Below the pieces are notes generated by a model. It saw only the letters and a list, made by a program, of their open reading frames with translations. It was not told where the DNA came from and searched no databases. Both the position numbers and the translations under genes were made by a program. A stretch of 64,000 nucleotides of DNA from an uncultured Gemmatimonadaceae bacterium. GTDB lineage: Bacteria; Gemmatimonadota; Gemmatimonadetes; Gemmatimonadales; Gemmatimonadaceae. Positions within the stretch are counted from its first letter, which is position 1. The number at the start of each line of letters is the position of its first letter. This document shows positions 1,355-8,718 of this stretch, piece by piece. Location: the NCBI GenBank assembly GCA_963761305.1, contig CAVXGK010000001.1, forward strand, positions 1,152,001-1,216,000, given 5' to 3'.

Positions 1355-2101
1355 TCAACGTCTCGCGTCCCCGGCGCCGCGCTCGGGCAGTGGAATCGGC
1401 TCGGTTCGCGGCTCGCGTCGCTGCTTGATCACGACCCCGACGCCGACGAGCGCGATCAACGCGAACGCGAACCACTGGATGGCGTAGTTCAGATGCGGCC
1501 CCTCGTCGAGCGGCGGCGGAGTGAGGCGCGCCAATCGGTCCGGGGCCACCACCGAATCGCCGAGCATGATCACGTAGACGGGGGCGACGGGATACGGAAG
1601 CGCTCTCCGAACCGCGGCATAGCCGAGCCGCGTGATCACGTTCGGACGCGTCGGCGACATGGTGCCGTCGACCGACGGAAGCTCTTCCACGAAGCCCGCG
1701 AATACGGAATCCCGCTCGCGCCACCTGGCGAGATCGACCGTCTCACCGTCCGGCGCGTAGACCCAGCCGCGATCGACGATCACCGCCGTGTCGCGACCCG
1801 GCACGCGGATCGGCGTCAGGATGTTCACGCCGGGCGATCCCTTGTACGACCGCGATGCGTAGACGAGCTCGTGATCATAGTCGGGCGTCCCGCTGACGTG
1901 CGCGCGCCGAAATCGAAGCGACGCCGAATCGCCGGTGAGCGTCGCGATGTTGGCGTCGGACTGCTCCAGCCGCGACATCACGAGCGCGTTGCGCGCCCGA
2001 CGTTCGGCCAACCGATGAAGCTGCCAGAAGCCCAGCCGAACGAAGATCGCCGCGGAGATGAGGGCGAACGCGACGAACGCCGGAAGACGAAGCGTGTTCA
2101 A
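1355..2101 (-). CDS. SURF1/Shy1 family protein (heme-copper oxidase assembly)
   Basis: LGFWQLHR, VIVDRGWV and HLNYAIQWFAFA motifs; two terminal TM helices; TTG start overlaps the upstream TGA. Confidence 0.93.
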   Translation of the reverse strand: MNTLRLPAFVAFALISAAIFVRLGFWQLHRLAERRARNALVMSRLEQSDANIATLTGDSASLRFRRAHVSGTPDYDHELVYASRSYKGSPGVNILTPIRVPGRDTAVIVDRGWVYAPDGETVDLARWRERDSVFAGFVEELPSVDGTMSPTRPNVITRLGYAAVRRALPYPVAPVYVIMLGDSVVAPDRLARLTPPPLDEGPHLNYAIQWFAFALIALVGVGVVIKQRREPRTEPIPLPERGAGDARR

Positions 2102-3579
2102 CGCACGGTGACGTCGAACACGCCGGTGAGCACGTCGTGGGCGGGTTTTACCTGCACCCACATGCGGTAGCGACCGGATTTCGGGAATTCATATGGAAGC
2201 GTGAACTCGCCGCTCATGGACATGCCGGACATCGGCTCCCGGTTCAGAACGCCGGGCTTGATCCGGCCGTGCGCGGTCGTGTCGCCGGCGTCGCGCGCGC
2301 GAAACACCTGCTGCGCGGTCGTCGACACCGTGCCCATCGGATGCAGATGGATGAAGACCGACTGGTCGTCGCGCACGATCACGGCGTGCGCGGCCATGCC
2401 GAGGTACGGGTTCAACGTCGCGGGGCGCCCAAGCTGGTCGTGAATGCTGAACGCGAGATCGACCGGTGTCTTGGCGACGAGCGACGTCGACGAATTGGAC
2501 AGCGTCATCGTGTAGCCATCGCCGAGCGACGTCGTCGCACCCGCGGCGGTGAGCTCCACGCCCGGCGTGCTCGCCCACGAGTCGTCGCTGTCCGAGGGCG
2601 CGATGGTGCCGAGCATCGCGGGCAGCGTGAGCGTGTCGGTCGCGGTGAGCGCGAGGCCGTTGTCGAGCATGATGTCGGCGAACAAGCGGTAGTTCCCGGC
2701 CGGAAGCCACGGCGCCTGCCCCACGAACACGAGCGAATCCTTTTCGATCGGATGCAGATGCGCGAACACGTCCATGTTCTGCCCGCCGACCAGAAACAGG
2801 TGCATCATCTTGCCGTGATCCGGCGCGACGGGCACGAAGATCGAGCGAAACTCGGCCGTATCGCGCAGCACCACTCTCATCGTGCGGTGTGTCGAGTCGC
2901 TGGTAATGGTGACGTTGGCGATGGGGGGACGGAACATCGTCCGCTGATAGTCGGCGTCGACTGAATTCCACCAACGCGCGCCGCCGAAAAGCAGGACGGC
3001 GAGAACCGGCACCGAGATCGCGGTGATGGCGTTCGCGCGCCGCTTGCGTGCGGCGTCGATCTCCTCGCCGGGAGGTACGAGACTCTCACCCGACGCCGCG
3101 CGCACGATCGTGACGAGACCGGCGACCAACAATCCGGTGAGCGCGAGGAGAATCGTAGCGAGTCCGGGAGAGATTCCGAGGCGGCCGGTGGCGAACGAAT
3201 CCACCGGCACGATTGCCGTGCCGTTTCCACGGCGGCCGTCGACGCGCACGTAGACGCTGTACGACCCGCGCGCCATGAGCCACACCTGCCCACTGTACAG
3301 CCGCGATTGACCGGCGACGCGTGCGATCTTGTCCGGCGACGGCGATCCGGCGACACCAGTTCGCCAGAACACCGACTGAATGCTCACGCTGTCCACGTCG
3401 TCGCTCGCCGTCCGCACGATCACTTCAGCGAGACCGGGCACGACGGACGGGGGTCGCACGATGGCGCGAATCACGTACGGACCCGCCGCGCCGTCGAACG
3501 TGACGTCCGGGCTGCCGACGTGTGCCGACGCGACGACCCACGCCGCGACGGCGAATGCGATTCCCGCCCAACGCTTCAT
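2098..3579 (-). CDS. Membrane-anchored periplasmic His-rich putative copper-binding protein with PmoB-like topology
   Basis: ATG 3579 overlaps upstream TGA (ATGA). Signal peptide MKRWAGIAFAVAAWVVASA, then HVGSPD; beta-rich domain; two TM helices; two beta domains with HGKMMH...AHLHP and MAAH...IHLHP; Met-rich MSGMSMS. Confidence 0.8.
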   Translation of the reverse strand: MKRWAGIAFAVAAWVVASAHVGSPDVTFDGAAGPYVIRAIVRPPSVVPGLAEVIVRTASDDVDSVSIQSVFWRTGVAGSPSPDKIARVAGQSRLYSGQVWLMARGSYSVYVRVDGRRGNGTAIVPVDSFATGRLGISPGLATILLALTGLLVAGLVTIVRAASGESLVPPGEEIDAARKRRANAITAISVPVLAVLLFGGARWWNSVDADYQRTMFRPPIANVTITSDSTHRTMRVVLRDTAEFRSIFVPVAPDHGKMMHLFLVGGQNMDVFAHLHPIEKDSLVFVGQAPWLPAGNYRLFADIMLDNGLALTATDTLTLPAMLGTIAPSDSDDSWASTPGVELTAAGATTSLGDGYTMTLSNSSTSLVAKTPVDLAFSIHDQLGRPATLNPYLGMAAHAVIVRDDQSVFIHLHPMGTVSTTAQQVFRARDAGDTTAHGRIKPGVLNREPMSGMSMSGEFTLPYEFPKSGRYRMWVQVKPAHDVLTGVFDVTVR

Positions 3580-4694
3580 CTGCGGACTCTGGTCATCCAG
3601 CGTCCGCGCGCCAGACCGATGGCGCTCGTGGCGGTGGCGATGCCGACGGCGATCAACATCTGCACCGGAAACGGCCACGATCCGGCCGGCGGCGGATCGA
3701 ACCGGCGAGTCATCGCCTCGTACGACGGCGCCATGAAGTAAACGAAGTTGTCGGCGTTGAAGAGCGGTCCGCGCGCGACGGGATTCGTCACCAGGAACGT
3801 CGCGAACGGCCACTGCACCGCGGTGAATGCCAGCACGAACACGACGCCGACGATCGGCGCCAGCTGGAGCGTGGAGAGCCGTTTGTCGAGACGATGCAGG
3901 ACGAGGTCGACGCAGAATGCCGGCACGATGAGCAGCAGCGGGAACGACAGCGCCACCATGTGCGTGACGTGCTGGTAGATCGGGCCCAGCTTGGGCGTCG
4001 CCGGGAATTGCTCGATCAGCCACATCAGCACGAGCATGATGGCCGTGTAGAACGCCGCGGCGGCGGTGGCCGGCCAACGCAGGTTGATCGCGCGCGCCAT
4101 CGCGCCGATGGCGAGAGGGAAGACGAGCGCCGTCACCTGATAGAAAGACGGGCTGTGCATCATGCGCCGTTCGCTGAACTCGGTGAGAAACAGCGCGGCG
4201 TTCATGATTACCAGGCCGCCCGTCGCGGCGAGCAGCCAGGCGAGACGTCCGCGCGCCTCCGGCGCGGCGCGATTCTGCTGGGCGAGCGTGAGCAGCACGG
4301 CGCCCAGGCAGATCGAGAAAATGCCGAGCGCGAGAACGGCGTGCGGTGGACTCACGATCTTGACGTCGAGGCCGTAGGCATTGTGCCACCAGTTGTCGAA
4401 CGGCGCCGACGTGAGCATCGCGCCGCAGCCCCAGATGCAGAGCCACGCGCCGAGCGGGCCGCGGAAACCCCAGAAGTGCACGGACGCCGCGCGCTCGGCG
4501 TCCGTCCCGGCGAACGTGGTGTGGAGCACGACCCAGCCGGAGCTCAGTCCGGCGAGCAACCCGCCGGCCTGGATCAGCAGGTGGGCGGGCGTCCAGAACG
4601 TGTCCCGCCCGATCGACATGTGCCACGAGATGTCCCAGTACACGCCGGCCATGACGCAGAAGGCGGCGAAGGCGACCGTATAAGCGTGCTTCAT
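3576..4694 (-). CDS. Polytopic membrane protein: PmoC/AmoC-like N-half fused to PmoA/AmoA-like C-half (putative CuMMO-related)
   Basis: 372 aa; WDISWHMSIGRDTFWTPAH and FDNWWHNAYGLDVKIVSPPH; C-half RWPAT..., FPLLLIVPAFCVDLVL, QWPF, GRW resembles PmoA. The CDS is certain; the functional call is inference. Confidence 0.7.
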   Translation of the reverse strand: MKHAYTVAFAAFCVMAGVYWDISWHMSIGRDTFWTPAHLLIQAGGLLAGLSSGWVVLHTTFAGTDAERAASVHFWGFRGPLGAWLCIWGCGAMLTSAPFDNWWHNAYGLDVKIVSPPHAVLALGIFSICLGAVLLTLAQQNRAAPEARGRLAWLLAATGGLVIMNAALFLTEFSERRMMHSPSFYQVTALVFPLAIGAMARAINLRWPATAAAAFYTAIMLVLMWLIEQFPATPKLGPIYQHVTHMVALSFPLLLIVPAFCVDLVLHRLDKRLSTLQLAPIVGVVFVLAFTAVQWPFATFLVTNPVARGPLFNADNFVYFMAPSYEAMTRRFDPPPAGSWPFPVQMLIAVGIATATSAIGLARGRWMTRVRR

Positions 4695-5504
4695 TTAGAA
4701 GAGACTCATCTGTTCGCCGAGCTGCTCGGGTTCCACCGCGGCCTGCCCGAACAGCCGCTGGAGATCCCGCGCTGACTCCGGCGAGTGCCCGGCGAAGTGG
4801 TTGTTGACGTATCCGTAAACCTCGCGACCCTGTTCCGCGTACGGCCAGAGCGCCTGCGTCCACGCCTCGAGCTCGCGCCGCCGGTCGACCTGGATGCGCG
4901 AGTAGTCGACGATGCCCTGGTCCGGCCCCATCCACCTGATGTAGAGAAAATCGGCCGTTGGACGGGTCGCCAACTGCAGCATCTGCTTGCGCGGAATCCA
5001 GCGCCCGTCGCTCAGCGCGAGCGCGACGTGATGCTCGGCGAGCAGCGCGAGCACGCCGTCGTGGATCCAACCCCGCTGGCGGAACTCGACGGCGAACCGG
5101 ATGTCGCGCGGCAGCTTGGGCAGAAACTGGGCGAGGGCCGGCAGCTCGTTTGGCGCGAAGTCCGGTCCGAGTTGAACGAGAACCGGCCCGAGCTTGCGGC
5201 CGAGCTCGCGTGCCCGGTCGACGAACTCATCCATGAGGTCGTCGGCGTTACGGAGCCGATGCTCGTGGGTGATCTCCTGCGGGACCTTGAGGGCGAAAAT
5301 GAAGTCGTCCGGGGTCCGCTCGGCCCAGCCGCGAACCGTTTTGGCGGCCGGCGTGGCATAGAACGTCGAATCGACCTCAACCGTGTCGAAGCCCCGCGCG
5401 TAGACGGTCAAATAGTCGGCGGGGCGAGTACCTTCAGGATAGAAGGGTCCGACCCAGGCGTCGTAGTTCCAGCCTTGTGTCCCTATGCGAATTCTGCCCG
5501 GCAT
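4695..5504 (-). CDS. DUF72 domain protein
   Basis: IRIGTQGWNY, YARGFDTVEVDSTFY, FALKVPQEITH, AVEFRQRGW, YVNNHFAGHSP; its stop abuts the next ATG. Confidence 0.93.
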   Translation of the reverse strand: MPGRIRIGTQGWNYDAWVGPFYPEGTRPADYLTVYARGFDTVEVDSTFYATPAAKTVRGWAERTPDDFIFALKVPQEITHEHRLRNADDLMDEFVDRARELGRKLGPVLVQLGPDFAPNELPALAQFLPKLPRDIRFAVEFRQRGWIHDGVLALLAEHHVALALSDGRWIPRKQMLQLATRPTADFLYIRWMGPDQGIVDYSRIQVDRRRELEAWTQALWPYAEQGREVYGYVNNHFAGHSPESARDLQRLFGQAAVEPEQLGEQMSLF

Positions 5505-5515
5505 ACGAGGAATCG

Positions 5516-5534
5516 GCACGCAAGGAATGCGTGC
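5516..5534. promoter_or_regulatory. Perfect inverted repeat GCACGCA-N5-TGCGTGC just upstream of the DUF72 operon
   Basis: Seen directly, 11 bp from the DUF72 ATG in a divergent intergenic region. Confidence 0.35.
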
Positions 5535-5651: not shown

Positions 5652-6215
5652 ATGCACGCGAACGATGAGAACGACAACAGCGGACCGGCAATCGATCGAA
5701 TTGAAGGCGTGTCGGGGGCGCTGGTTGGAGCAGGGATCGGCTCGGCCGCCGGGCCGGTCGGAGCGATCATCGGCAGCGTTGCGGGGGCGATCGGTGGATG
5801 GTGGGCAGGACACGCCATCATCGAGGCGGCGCGGTCGGTGAATCACGAGGACGAGGAGCATTTTCGCGAGCACTACGATTCGCTCGCGGAACGGCCGGCG
5901 GATCGAGCATACGACGACGTGCGCGGCGTGTACTACCTCGGCCAGATCGCCAGCCATCATCCCGATTTCGCGTCCGGCGAGTTCAGGGATCTGGAGGCCG
6001 AGCTCGAGAAGGGCTGGGCGACGCACGGCACCACACACGGCTCATGGGCCAGCATGCGGGATTGCGCGGCGGCCGGTTTCAACCGCGGTCGCGCGAAGCT
6101 CGACGAGATGGCGCGTCACGCGCGAGCCGAGTGGGAGAGCCGTCGCGGCGCTTCGAGCCGGCACGCACGAATGGCGAATGGCTGCCGCTCAGGACACGAA
6201 GATCTGACGCGCTAG
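5652..6215 (+). CDS. Hypothetical glycine-zipper protein
   Basis: AGGAG RBS; GALVGAGIGSAAGPVGAIIGSVAGAIGG glycine zipper followed by a helical domain. Confidence 0.75.
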   Translation: MHANDENDNSGPAIDRIEGVSGALVGAGIGSAAGPVGAIIGSVAGAIGGWWAGHAIIEAARSVNHEDEEHFREHYDSLAERPADRAYDDVRGVYYLGQIASHHPDFASGEFRDLEAELEKGWATHGTTHGSWASMRDCAAAGFNRGRAKLDEMARHARAEWESRRGASSRHARMANGCRSGHEDLTR

Positions 6216-6860
6216 CACCGGGCCGATCGATCGGTTCGAACGGCCTACGCGCAATGTGATCGGGCCGTCGAAGGGCGCCCGCGACACGACCTCGACGCGC
6301 GTGCCGGGGACGATCCCCAGCTCGGCCAAGTATCTGAGCTGTCCCGGATCGCGGTCGCCGACGCGCTCGACGCGAACGCGCCGGCCTTCGTCGACGTCGG
6401 CCAGGCTCGCCAGCGACTGTTCGCGAAGGATGCCCTCGCGGGTCGGAATCGGCGCGCCGTGCGGATCGGTCGTCGGCTCGCCGATCGCGGCGGCCATCCG
6501 ATCGATCAGCTCGTCCGACGCGGCATGCTCGAGACGCTCGGCCTCCTGGTGCACTCGGTCCCAGGGGTAGTCGAGCGCTTGCGTGAGATACGCTTCGATC
6601 ACGCGATGCCGGCGAATCGTGCGGAGCGCGGCGCGTCGGCCGTCGCGCGTGAGACGCACGCCGCGATAGCGCTCGTGCGTGATGAGGCGCTGGCCGGCCA
6701 GTCGTCGCACCATGCCGCTCACCGAGGCCGGGGCGACACCCAATTCAGCGGCGATCTCGTTGGTACCGGCCGGCTCGCCCGCGCTCTCGAGCTCGAAGAT
6801 CACCTTCAGGTAGTCTTCGGCCGGTGCGGTGAGCGGCTGGCTCGCGCGCACGGCGGTCAC
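6189..6860 (-). CDS. DtxR/MntR family metal-dependent repressor with C-terminal FeoA domain
   Basis: EDYLKVIF, RRHRVIEAYL, VHQEAERLEH, DPHGAPIP, LAELGIVPGT; GTG overlaps the USP stop. Confidence 0.95.
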   Translation of the reverse strand: MTAVRASQPLTAPAEDYLKVIFELESAGEPAGTNEIAAELGVAPASVSGMVRRLAGQRLITHERYRGVRLTRDGRRAALRTIRRHRVIEAYLTQALDYPWDRVHQEAERLEHAASDELIDRMAAAIGEPTTDPHGAPIPTREGILREQSLASLADVDEGRRVRVERVGDRDPGQLRYLAELGIVPGTRVEVVSRAPFDGPITLRVGRSNRSIGPVLARQIFVS

Positions 6861-7327
6861 AGCGGCTTCTCTGGTGGAGCGATCGGGTTCTCGCGCGGCG
6901 TTCGGCGTTCGCCGCGCACGAGCAGCACGGGCACGCGTGAGCGGTGACGTACTTCGTTCGCCACGCTGCCGTAGATGATGTCCTTGATGAATCGATGGCC
7001 GTGCGTCGACATCGCGATCAGGTCGCACGACTCGCGCGCCGCGGCGGCCGAGATCTCGCTCGCCGGATCGCCCGCGGCGAGGACGCAGTCGGCGGGCAGC
7101 CCGCTCGCGTTCAGGGCGGCGCACTGAGCCTCGATGTACTCGCGGTCCAGCCGCATCTCTTCCGATTCGCGCAGATGGAGCTGCTTCACGTTGCGCGCGG
7201 CCCATCCGTCGGCGACGTGGATGAGCACGAGCGACGCACCGCAGAACCGCGCCAGCGCGGACACGTGCTCGAGAATCGCCGAGTCGTAGTCGGAGTGCTC
7301 GAGCGGAACGAGGATGCGCTTGTACAT
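6857..7327 (-). CDS. Universal stress protein
   Basis: MYKRILVPL...LIAMSTHGH...YGSVANEVRHRSRVPVLLV; TGATG coupling to mntH. Confidence 0.93.
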   Translation of the reverse strand: MYKRILVPLEHSDYDSAILEHVSALARFCGASLVLIHVADGWAARNVKQLHLRESEEMRLDREYIEAQCAALNASGLPADCVLAAGDPASEISAAAARESCDLIAMSTHGHRFIKDIIYGSVANEVRHRSRVPVLLVRGERRTPRENPIAPPEKPL

Positions 7328-8718
7328 CAGCCGATCCCCATCCACCCGCGCACGGTTTGCGCGAGCAGCCACGCGTTCAGCGCCGCGATCGTGAGGGCGG
7401 TCGTCCACGCGACGACTTTGAGCCACGACGCGTTCACGAACGCGCCCATCTTGGCGCGATCGGACGTGAACGAGACGAGCGGAAAGACGGCGAACGAGAG
7501 CTGCAGGCTCAGAATCACCTGGCTGAGGATGAGCAACCGTGCGGTGCCGCTGGCGCCGTAGAAAATGGCGACGATGGCGGCCGGGACAATGGCGATCGCG
7601 CGCGTGATCAGCCGGCGCAGCCAGGGACGCAGCCGGATGTTGAGGAAGCCCTCCATCACGATCTGGCCGGCGAGCGTACCGGTGAGGGTCGAGTTCTGTC
7701 CCGACGCCAGGAGCGCCAGCGCGAACGCCGTGCTCGCGCCGGCGCCGAGGAGCGGCGTGAGCAGCTTGTACGCGTCCTGGATTTCGGCGACCTCGGCGTG
7801 GCCCGACGTATGGAACGTGGCCGCGGCCACGACGAGAATGGCCGCGTTGACGAAGAAGGCGAAGCTCAGCGCGATCGTCGAATCGAGAAACGCGAAGCGC
7901 ACCGCTTCGCGCCGCCCTTCGCTCGTCTCGGCGTAGCGCCGCGTCTGCACGATCGACGAATGCAGATAGAGGTTGTGCGGCATGACGGTCGCGCCGAGGA
8001 TGCCGATGGCGATGTAGAGCATCTCGGGGTCGCGGATGATGGCGGTGCTCGGCACGAACCCCTTCGCCAGTTGGCCGACGTTCGGATGCGCCAGAATGAT
8101 CTCGAACATGAAGCACAGGCCGACCGACGCAATGAGCGTGATCACCAGCGCCTCGAGCACGCGCACGCCACGATTCTGGAGCGCGAGCAGCAGCAGCACG
8201 TCGAAGCCGGTGACGAGCACGCCCACGACGATCGGCAGATGAAACAGCAGATTGAGCGCGATCGCCGAGCCGATGACTTCGGCGAGATCGCACGCGGCGA
8301 TGGCGATCTCGCAGAGGATCCAGAGCGCGGTGGCCGTGGGCTTCGAGTAGTGATCGCGGCAGGCCTGCGCGAGATCTCGGCCCGTCACGATGCCGAGCTT
8401 GGAGGCGAGCCCCTGGAGCAGCACGGCCATGATGTTCGACAGGAGCACGACACTCAGAAGCGTGTAGCCGAAGCGCGACCCGCCGGCGAGGTCGGTGGCC
8501 CAGTTGCCGGGATCCATGTACCCGACGGCGACGAGATACCCGGGTCCGGCGAACGCGAGGAGCTTGCCGAAGAACGAACGCGCGTCGATGGGGACGCTGC
8601 GGTAGACCTCCTGGAGGCTTGGCGCGACGCGCGAACGACGCCAGCCCTGCTCGGAATCGGAGTCCGGGGGCGGCTGATCGTCCTGTGGATCGGGGCGTAG
8701 GAGGCGAGGGAGAACCAA
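7327..8718 (-). CDS. mntH: Nramp family Mn2+/Fe2+ transporter
   Basis: [35 protein letters not shown]. Confidence 0.97.

Follow-up and report, generated by a model that had tools for sequence, protein, structure and literature searches.

The window, a 64,000-nucleotide stretch of DNA from an uncultured, soil-type Gemmatimonadaceae bacterium, encodes a membrane protein (P0001) that joins two parts of the copper membrane monooxygenases (CuMMOs) in one chain. A core related to subunit C, with its metal-ligand pattern, is followed by a domain with the fold of subunit A. Both halves are homologous to the respective CuMMO subunits, the ligand positions are conserved throughout the family, and the gene is obligately paired with that of a His-rich partner protein, P0002. 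P0001 is a distant relative of the CuMMOs; it is neither a particulate methane monooxygenase (pMMO) nor an ammonia monooxygenase (AMO). From these sequence features we tentatively propose that P0001 may be a copper- and O2-dependent redox enzyme, an oxygenase or oxidase whose substrate is neither methane nor ammonia. The features are listed in Table 1.

Results

The N-terminal half resembles the metal-binding core of PmoC

Residues 1-143 were compared by hhalign with a profile of 28 PmoC proteins and aligned with a probability of 94.5% (E 8e-8). All 28 PmoC sequences scored above each of 301 decoys from the host. In a blind test, the hidden Markov model (HMM) of the P0001 family was run over 151 Binatia genomes. 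Four strong family matches were obtained, together with weak matches in 23 further genomes (E 3e-6 to 8e-4) that covered profile positions 11-157 only. All 23 genomes were among the 30 that contain pmoA, and apart from three with strong matches none of the 121 genomes without pmoA was hit. Where coordinates were compared, the weak matches sat on the frame just upstream of pmoA. Homology of the N-terminal half to the metal-binding core of PmoC is thus supported at the sequence level. The Pfam family PF04896 was weakly touched by 12 of 110 family members (best E 0.0011).

In AMO, the CuC ligands are D136, H140, D146 and H153, and the CuD ligands are N207, H211, E218 and H225 (PMC12804982). Conservation in P0001 was counted over 110 aligned rows of the family (92 rows for the partner). 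At the CuC-type positions D21 and H38 are invariant, while H25 is found in 107 and D31 in 108 rows. At the CuD-type positions D100 is likewise invariant, and H104, H118 and D110 are each kept in 106 rows; D110 falls one residue short of the position of AmoC E218. Both ligand triads are complete in 106 of the 110 rows and in 46 of the 50 most divergent ones. Second-shell residues (R30, D31, F33, W103 and P116-P117) are also retained, and the N-terminal half shares an R-D-x-F-x-x-P-x-H loop with PmoC/AmoC.

An AlphaFold2 model computed from the 110-sequence alignment (pLDDT 93.4, pTM 0.92) has helices at residues 2-27, 36-62, 81-107 and 116-142, directly followed by one at 145-169. The AMO channel is built from transmembrane helices (TM) 3-6 of AmoC plus TM1 of AmoA (PMC12804982), and exactly these helices are joined in P0001. 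Across the family, the linker between the C and A parts has a median length of 15 amino acids (aa) and a net charge of +1.9; this short basic linker would place the junction on the cytoplasmic side. Archaeal AmoC is likewise shortened at its N-terminus (PMC9038741). Three structure searches were run with the whole model. Their top 50 matches included no PmoC chain, and the N-terminal half was matched by four-helix bundles of a generic kind (cytochrome b561, Z 8.0).

The preliminary description of the window had suggested a natural fusion of subunits C and A. The joining itself is borne out, as a PmoC core (hhalign 94.5%) and a PmoA fold occupy one ORF that is full-length across the family. The C part, however, stands in reduced form: the metal-binding core is present, and of PmoC it comprises only the last four helices (TM3-6).

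The C-terminal half has the PmoA/AmoA fold in the predicted structure

The stretch 3576-4250, for which a likeness to PmoA/AmoA had been proposed from five sequence blocks, corresponds to residues 149-372 of the intact 372-aa open reading frame (ORF) at 3576-4694 (-). The model was compared by VIA-align with Foldseek's top 996 chains. Over residues 143-372, eleven PmoA/AmoA chains were matched with Z 12.5-13.6 over 187-206 aligned residues (rmsd 3.6-4.2 A), the best being 4phz_B (Z 13.6, 206 aligned, rmsd 4.0). In the same list, two older PmoA/AmoA chains reached Z 8.7-8.9 and the best unrelated chain 6.8. Foldseek itself placed PmoA/AmoA chains at ranks 1-4 with probability 1.00 and E 0.05-0.07, which is not significant by E-value. 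A Foldseek-independent search of 48,161 representatives gave Z 8.8 for the PmoA representative 3chx_B, level with S-components of energy-coupling factor (ECF) transporters (up to 8.8), and therefore cannot by itself separate PmoA from S-components. Identity of the C-terminal half to PmoA/AmoA chains is 11-17%.

For the sequence comparison, a PmoA reference profile was made from 31 proteins read from Binatia loci, with the GDWDFW motif as one selection criterion. The family profile of the C-terminal half aligned with it collinearly to the C-terminus over 201 columns (probability 26.7%, E 7e-4, score 31.5). All five blocks are found in the translation, and hhalign paired the same five with real PmoA in the same order. 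The score is weak but above the controls: the reversed profile gave 17.6, and none of 100 local shuffles reached 31.5 (mean 15.7, maximum 27.7). When single sequences were tested, 13 of the 31 PmoA proteins outscored every one of the 301 host membrane-protein decoys and 19 lay above the 95th percentile, while nine decoys reached the PmoA median score. The relationship to PmoA is clear by fold and weak by sequence. The predicted structure, rather than the sequence, decides, and it confirms the PmoA/AmoA fold.

The GDWDFW signature had been described as absent, and indeed GDW occurs at that place in none of the 110 family rows compared with 31 of 31 PmoA proteins; nine GDW matches lie elsewhere (residues 324-364). 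H180, which takes the position of the signature loop, is possibly an extra metal ligand. In agreement with the expectation that HMMs would probably miss the protein, the Pfam AMO model (PF02461) gave no match.

The C-terminal half also bears a six-helix resemblance to ECF S-components (Z 6-8.8), a hint that the S-component fold may extend to PmoA itself. S-components, which work with an EcfAA'T module, carry an AxxxA motif in helix 1 (PMC11109136); the text of that paper and three of its four supplements make no mention of monooxygenases.

P0001 is obligately paired with the partner P0002

The start codon of P0002 overlaps the stop codon of P0001 (ATGA). A P0002 homologue follows the P0001 relative in 79 of 81 loci, and in all 74 loci with at least 600 bases of room. 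In Chondrinema the pair is WP_284688389.1/WP_284688390.1. The position of His20, before which the signal cleavage site was placed by eye, is occupied by His in 89 of the 92 partner rows. In the other three (loci L007, L008 and L010) it is Asp. Seven His and one Met of domains 2 and 3 are each conserved in 91-92 rows, and the two domains align with each other at a profile probability of 88.9%.

Sequence hints for the partner point to YtkA/CrdA (CrdA E 0.0055) and, in three of the 92 partners, to CopC (E 0.029). The structural matches are generic immunoglobulin (Ig) folds with Z 8.6 or less, among them CrdA (7.9), the cbb3-complex chain 9g6b_C (7.8) and CopC (6.9). With the whole 474-aa model as query, PmoB was not among the top matches. 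The partner is hence termed B-like with respect to gene position and layout, a term that makes no claim about homology with PmoB.

The P0001 family is large and patchily distributed

P0001 matched no Pfam family up to E 10 and had no meaningful NCBIfam match, and neither the protein nor the family profile matched a sequence in the Protein Data Bank. A search of the ESM Atlas returned unnamed clusters only, and the model was without match in a viral fold library. Relatives nevertheless number at least 7,976, the number of candidates passing E 0.001 among 8,000 scored. Clustering at 50% left 1,954 representatives, and the one-ORF C-A arrangement is kept full-length throughout. The nearest named loci are from Gemmatimonadaceae (~90% identity). 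Further relatives occur in Acidobacteriota, Binatia, Eisenbacteria and a kofleriacean, and one is plasmid-borne in a Bacteroidota isolate associated with seaweed.

Of 201 genomes sampled evenly from the host phylum, 48 contain the family (47 of 200 without the unpublished genome G335). PF02461 found pmoA in none of these 201 genomes; the same model did find pmoA in Binatia. The host genome, which is 93% complete, has a single copy of P0001, and a search of it revealed no pmoA, pmoC or pmoB. A role of the family as an accessory of a canonical CuMMO was rejected, as pmoA occurs in one of the four Binatia genomes with strong matches and in none of the host-phylum genomes.

Single-chain forms and degenerate paralogues

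Actinobacterial plasmids encode more distantly related proteins of 470-500 aa in which the C core, an A-like domain and an Ig domain starting with His are combined in one chain. Both D-x3-H...H motifs are present in five of six; in L003 the second is exact and the first is shifted. The middle domain aligned with the C-terminal half of the family at a probability of 72.6%, and directly with PmoA at 0.06%. Next come a signal-like helix with Ala-His-Asp at its end and an Ig domain (FixH/YtkA, E 0.01-0.05), and a final helix closes the chain; the Ig part aligned with partner domain 1 at 6%. At the junction, Ala-x-Ala-His-Asp resembles a signal-peptidase site inside the chain, cleavage at which could free an N-terminal His. 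These proteins possibly represent a single-gene C-A-B form in cultured strains; WP_024126299.1 and WP_014805643.1 are two examples of the single-chain form. Locus L120 is plasmid pMYCCH.01 of M. chubuense NBB4, which we take to carry a hydrocarbon CuMMO operon as well. If so, canonical and cryptic CuMMO forms share one replicon.

Some paralogues of the family have degenerate metal motifs (Table 1). Two of them (L118 and L119) adjoin a short-chain dehydrogenase-like ORF and a WD40-like periplasmic ORF, as judged by eye.

Several apparent variants were discarded. A natural split between the C and A parts in genome G162 is a probable frameshift on a 2.4-kb contig. In L116 (987-2223), on a 2.4-kb contig, the frame changes near the C/A junction, which probably reflects a pseudogene or an error of assembly. 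An 806-aa C-A-partner fusion (P0394), the sole match of its kind among 8000 longer candidates, looks out of frame in its middle and was not used. An 834-aa frame in G055 was rejected as a fusion; the gene itself is of ordinary length, and the frame merely stays open upstream of it.

Gene neighbourhood

In the window, a SURF1 gene (1355-2101) lies directly after the partner gene, and the stop of a DUF72 gene (4695-5530) abuts the start codon of P0001. The SURF1, partner, P0001 and DUF72 genes likely share one transcript. About 1.5 kb upstream, positions 6189-8718 form a manganese/iron uptake cluster with a DtxR/MntR-type regulator carrying a FeoA domain, an Nramp-like transporter and a universal-stress-type gene, the latter two named from neighbour comparison.

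Beyond the partner, the recurrent neighbours in 80 loci were DUF72 (24, named by likeness to the gene in the window), acyl-CoA dehydrogenase (21), SURF1 (15) and Nramp (8). These counts are lower bounds owing to crude ORF clustering and loci of unequal length, with 27 of 50 cluster representatives scanned. DUF72, SURF1 and Nramp genes are largely limited to close Gemmatimonadaceae relatives; only the partner is constant. Among the scanned neighbours of the P0001 family, no copper gene was common to different lineages.

Table 1. Coordinates of P0001, its parts, its partner and related proteins (L numbers denote loci elsewhere)
Feature	Coordinates	Strand	Basis or remarks
PmoC-core + PmoA-fold single-chain membrane protein (P0001), 372 aa, polytopic	3576..4694	-	ORF, model, profiles
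Four-helix PmoC/AmoC-like core (= TM3-6), residues 1-143	4266..4694	-	hhalign, decoy test, genome test
CuC-type ligand set D21, H25, D31, H38	4581..4634	-	+4/+10/+17 spacing as AmoC D136/H140/D146/H153
CuD-type ligand set D100, H104, H118 (plus D110)	4341..4397	-	+4/+18 spacing as AmoC N207/H211/H225
PmoA/AmoA-fold domain without GDWDFW loop, residues 144-372	3579..4265	-	structure and profile alignment
H180, conserved family-specific His at PmoA signature-loop position	4155..4157	-	104/110 rows; position from hhalign
Partner P0002, 493 aa: signal peptide, N-terminal His, Ig-like domain, two membrane helices, two His-rich Ig-like domains	2098..3579	-	ORF, profiles, model
Partner domain 1, from His20 (predicted mature N-terminus), YtkA/CrdA/CopC-like	3190..3522	-	alignment, profile, fold
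Partner membrane helix hairpin	2941..3168	-	helices 119-144 and 157-194 of mature model
Partner domains 2+3, duplicated His-rich Ig-like pair	2101..2928	-	H255, H260, H274, H276; M395, H398, H411, H413
Actinobacterial single-chain proteins	L004 6001-7428; L120 6905-8374; L121 6920-8365; L122 6917-8407; L124 7001-8434
Degenerate-motif paralogues	L117 2502-3644; L118 2847-4334; L119 1855-2997; L125 5355-7856; L126 4024-5451

Discussion

A copper/O2 redox enzyme is the function that we tentatively favour, because P0001 keeps the whole catalytic core with its second shell and because the active site of the CuMMOs lies in subunit C. This site is able to work without intact CuB, and CuMMOs can lack CuB ligands (PMC13058606). 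Whether it is CuC, CuD or both is still disputed in the cited literature. In P0001 the short basic linker connects the catalytic core of subunit C (TM3-6) with subunit A, and one chain thereby contains all five copper-channel helices, four of them from C and one, the first, from A. In the proposed mechanism, copper would be bound on the periplasmic side at the CuC- and CuD-type sites, which would carry out O2-dependent redox chemistry on a substrate that is neither methane nor ammonia. The partner would form a complex with P0001 in place of subunit B and would load or feed the site, supplying copper via its N-terminal His and His-rich domains.

Several observations weigh against this proposal. 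The CuD Asn of PmoC/AmoC is replaced by Asp100 in all 110 rows, and the PmoA signature loop is missing. On the partner side, the HxH on the strand equivalent to the CuB strand of PmoB is found in none of the 92 partners, compared with 29 of 29 Binatia PmoB proteins (a set picked by that motif), and the collinear hhalign alignment of partner and PmoB reached a probability of 2% (E 0.024). Among the locus neighbours, no conserved genes for downstream oxidation of an alcohol or hydroxylamine stand beside the gene pair. Actinobacterial relatives lie amid genes of copper and metal homeostasis, and four of their loci have CopC, multicopper oxidase, cupredoxin or P-type ATPase genes nearby. Furthermore, several paralogues are without some or all of the histidines yet have an intact A-like half, and L126 combines degenerate metal motifs with a full intact partner.

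A second reading, which we regard as somewhat less likely, is copper handling on a CuMMO scaffold. Here the partner would capture and buffer periplasmic copper. From it the metal would pass to the His/Asp sites in the membrane, serving copper uptake, the supply of cuproenzymes (heme-copper oxidases, for example) or detoxification, without oxidation of any organic compound. The partner domains resemble CrdA, CopC, YtkA and the cbb3-complex subunit 9g6b_C, and in Bacillus YtkA domains act in the assembly of CuA (PMC13344008). Of the seven actinobacterial plasmid loci, four have clear copper genes nearby, two a BlaI/CopY-family regulator only and one neither; a SURF1 gene lies nearby in 15 of 80 loci, and the A-like half resembles ECF S-components (Z up to 8.8). 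However, no fold match of the partner rises above the generic Ig range (Z 8.6 at most), and in the family of the window itself the partner is the only constant neighbour, with no copper gene across lineages. Moreover, both sites keep the full AmoC geometry together with the second shell, which is more than a relay seems to need. The redox-enzyme and copper-handling readings are not mutually exclusive.

We consider it unlikely that the His/Asp sites hold zinc or iron and that P0001, linked to the CuMMOs by ancestry alone, acts in the membrane as a hydrolase or in lipid modification. Zinc can occupy the CuC site (PMC12804982), and both sites are Asp-His-His, a harder donor set than that of CuD, but an N-terminal His and His/Met clusters like those of copper proteins are found in the obligate partner, and the actinobacterial context contains copper genes. 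Slightly more unlikely is a true small-molecule monooxygenase for methane, ammonia, short alkanes or a similar gas that primer and HMM surveys have missed. The sequence features that speak for it are a complete CuC/CuD core, the C-A-B gene order and the lack of detection at the Pfam AMO/AmoC cut-offs. Against it stand the loss of the signature loop and of CuB, the single copy, the absence of conserved alcohol or hydroxylamine oxidation genes from adjacent positions (a host-wide search for a C1 or nitrification pathway was not made), the patchy spread (48/201) and the occurrence on a plasmid of a seaweed-associated Bacteroidota isolate. The idea that only the N-terminal half is CuMMO-related and the C-terminal half an unrelated six-helix bundle, of S-component type or by chance, can draw on the Foldseek E of only 0.05, the hhalign probability of 26.7%, the tie of 3chx_B with S-components at Z 8.8 in the wide library and the 0.06% of the actinobacterial middle domain, but it is largely refuted and very improbable given Z 12.5-13.6 over 187-206 residues for the better-resolved PmoA chains, collinear blocks that outscore all 100 shuffles, and a domain that directly follows the PmoC core as pmoA follows pmoC.

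A full-text literature search, with subscription journals mostly outside its range, found neither a fused C-A protein nor the P0001 family described; the term 'CuMMO-like' in the accessible text of PMC13492269 refers to ordinary operons. The family points to a large overlooked branch of methane and ammonia monooxygenase relatives. Thousands of proteins keep the five channel helices and both putative copper sites in one chain, whereas the CuMMOs of the cited review and papers have A, B and C as individual subunits of a complex and are hard to express. The single-gene forms in cultured Streptomyces, Mycolicibacterium and Leifsonia offer a simple model for CuC/CuD without CuB, and the family may serve as an outgroup when the origin of methane and ammonia oxidation is traced. 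One may speculate, with more doubt than confidence, that it is a second, cryptic CuMMO lineage, common in soil heterotrophs, which activates O2 at CuC/CuD without CuB and has C and A fused (as a C-A-B-like chain in actinobacteria). Such a lineage would either oxidise a trace gas or organic substrate missed by pmoA/amoA surveys or preserve an ancestral state of pMMO/AMO. In the former case, it would have escaped marker-gene surveys in roughly one in four of the genomes sampled from a major soil phylum.

Comparison with known systems

The partner domains are Ig-like as in YtkA/CtaK, YcnJ (CopC-CopD-YtkA), CrdA and CopC, with weak and generic matches. Unlike in the CopCD/YcnJ importers, CopD is not matched by P0001, nor is it among the 25 families listed for 110 members. 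From ECF systems the locus differs in that no ECF-type genes were among the recurrent neighbours scanned, and the best S-component match of the C-terminal half (Z 8.8) lies 4 to 5 units below the 12.5-13.6 of PmoA.

With PmoB/AmoB (PF04744) the partner shares the gene position, signal peptide, N-terminal His, beta-sandwich, two membrane helices and a further beta-sandwich; it differs in lacking the CuB HxH and in having three domains, two of them His-rich. The CuMMO genes xmoC, xmoA and xmoB, whose products assemble as a trimer of heterotrimers, are here represented by two genes instead of three, with the order of C-A and then the partner kept. P0001 shares the four-helix core and the CuC and CuD ligand spacing with PmoC/AmoC (PF04896), whereas TM1-2 are missing, the CuD Asn is changed to Asp and the core is not a separate polypeptide. 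With PmoA/AmoA (PF02461; 4PHZ_B, 7S4H_B, 9CL6_B) the C-terminal half shares the fold, collinear to the C-terminus; it has His180 instead of the GDWDFW loop, is joined behind the C core and falls below Pfam detection. Since P0001 departs from pMMO and AMO in the CuD Asn, the PmoA signature, CuB and the three-gene arrangement, we do not class it with either enzyme and place it instead as a distant relative of the copper membrane monooxygenases.

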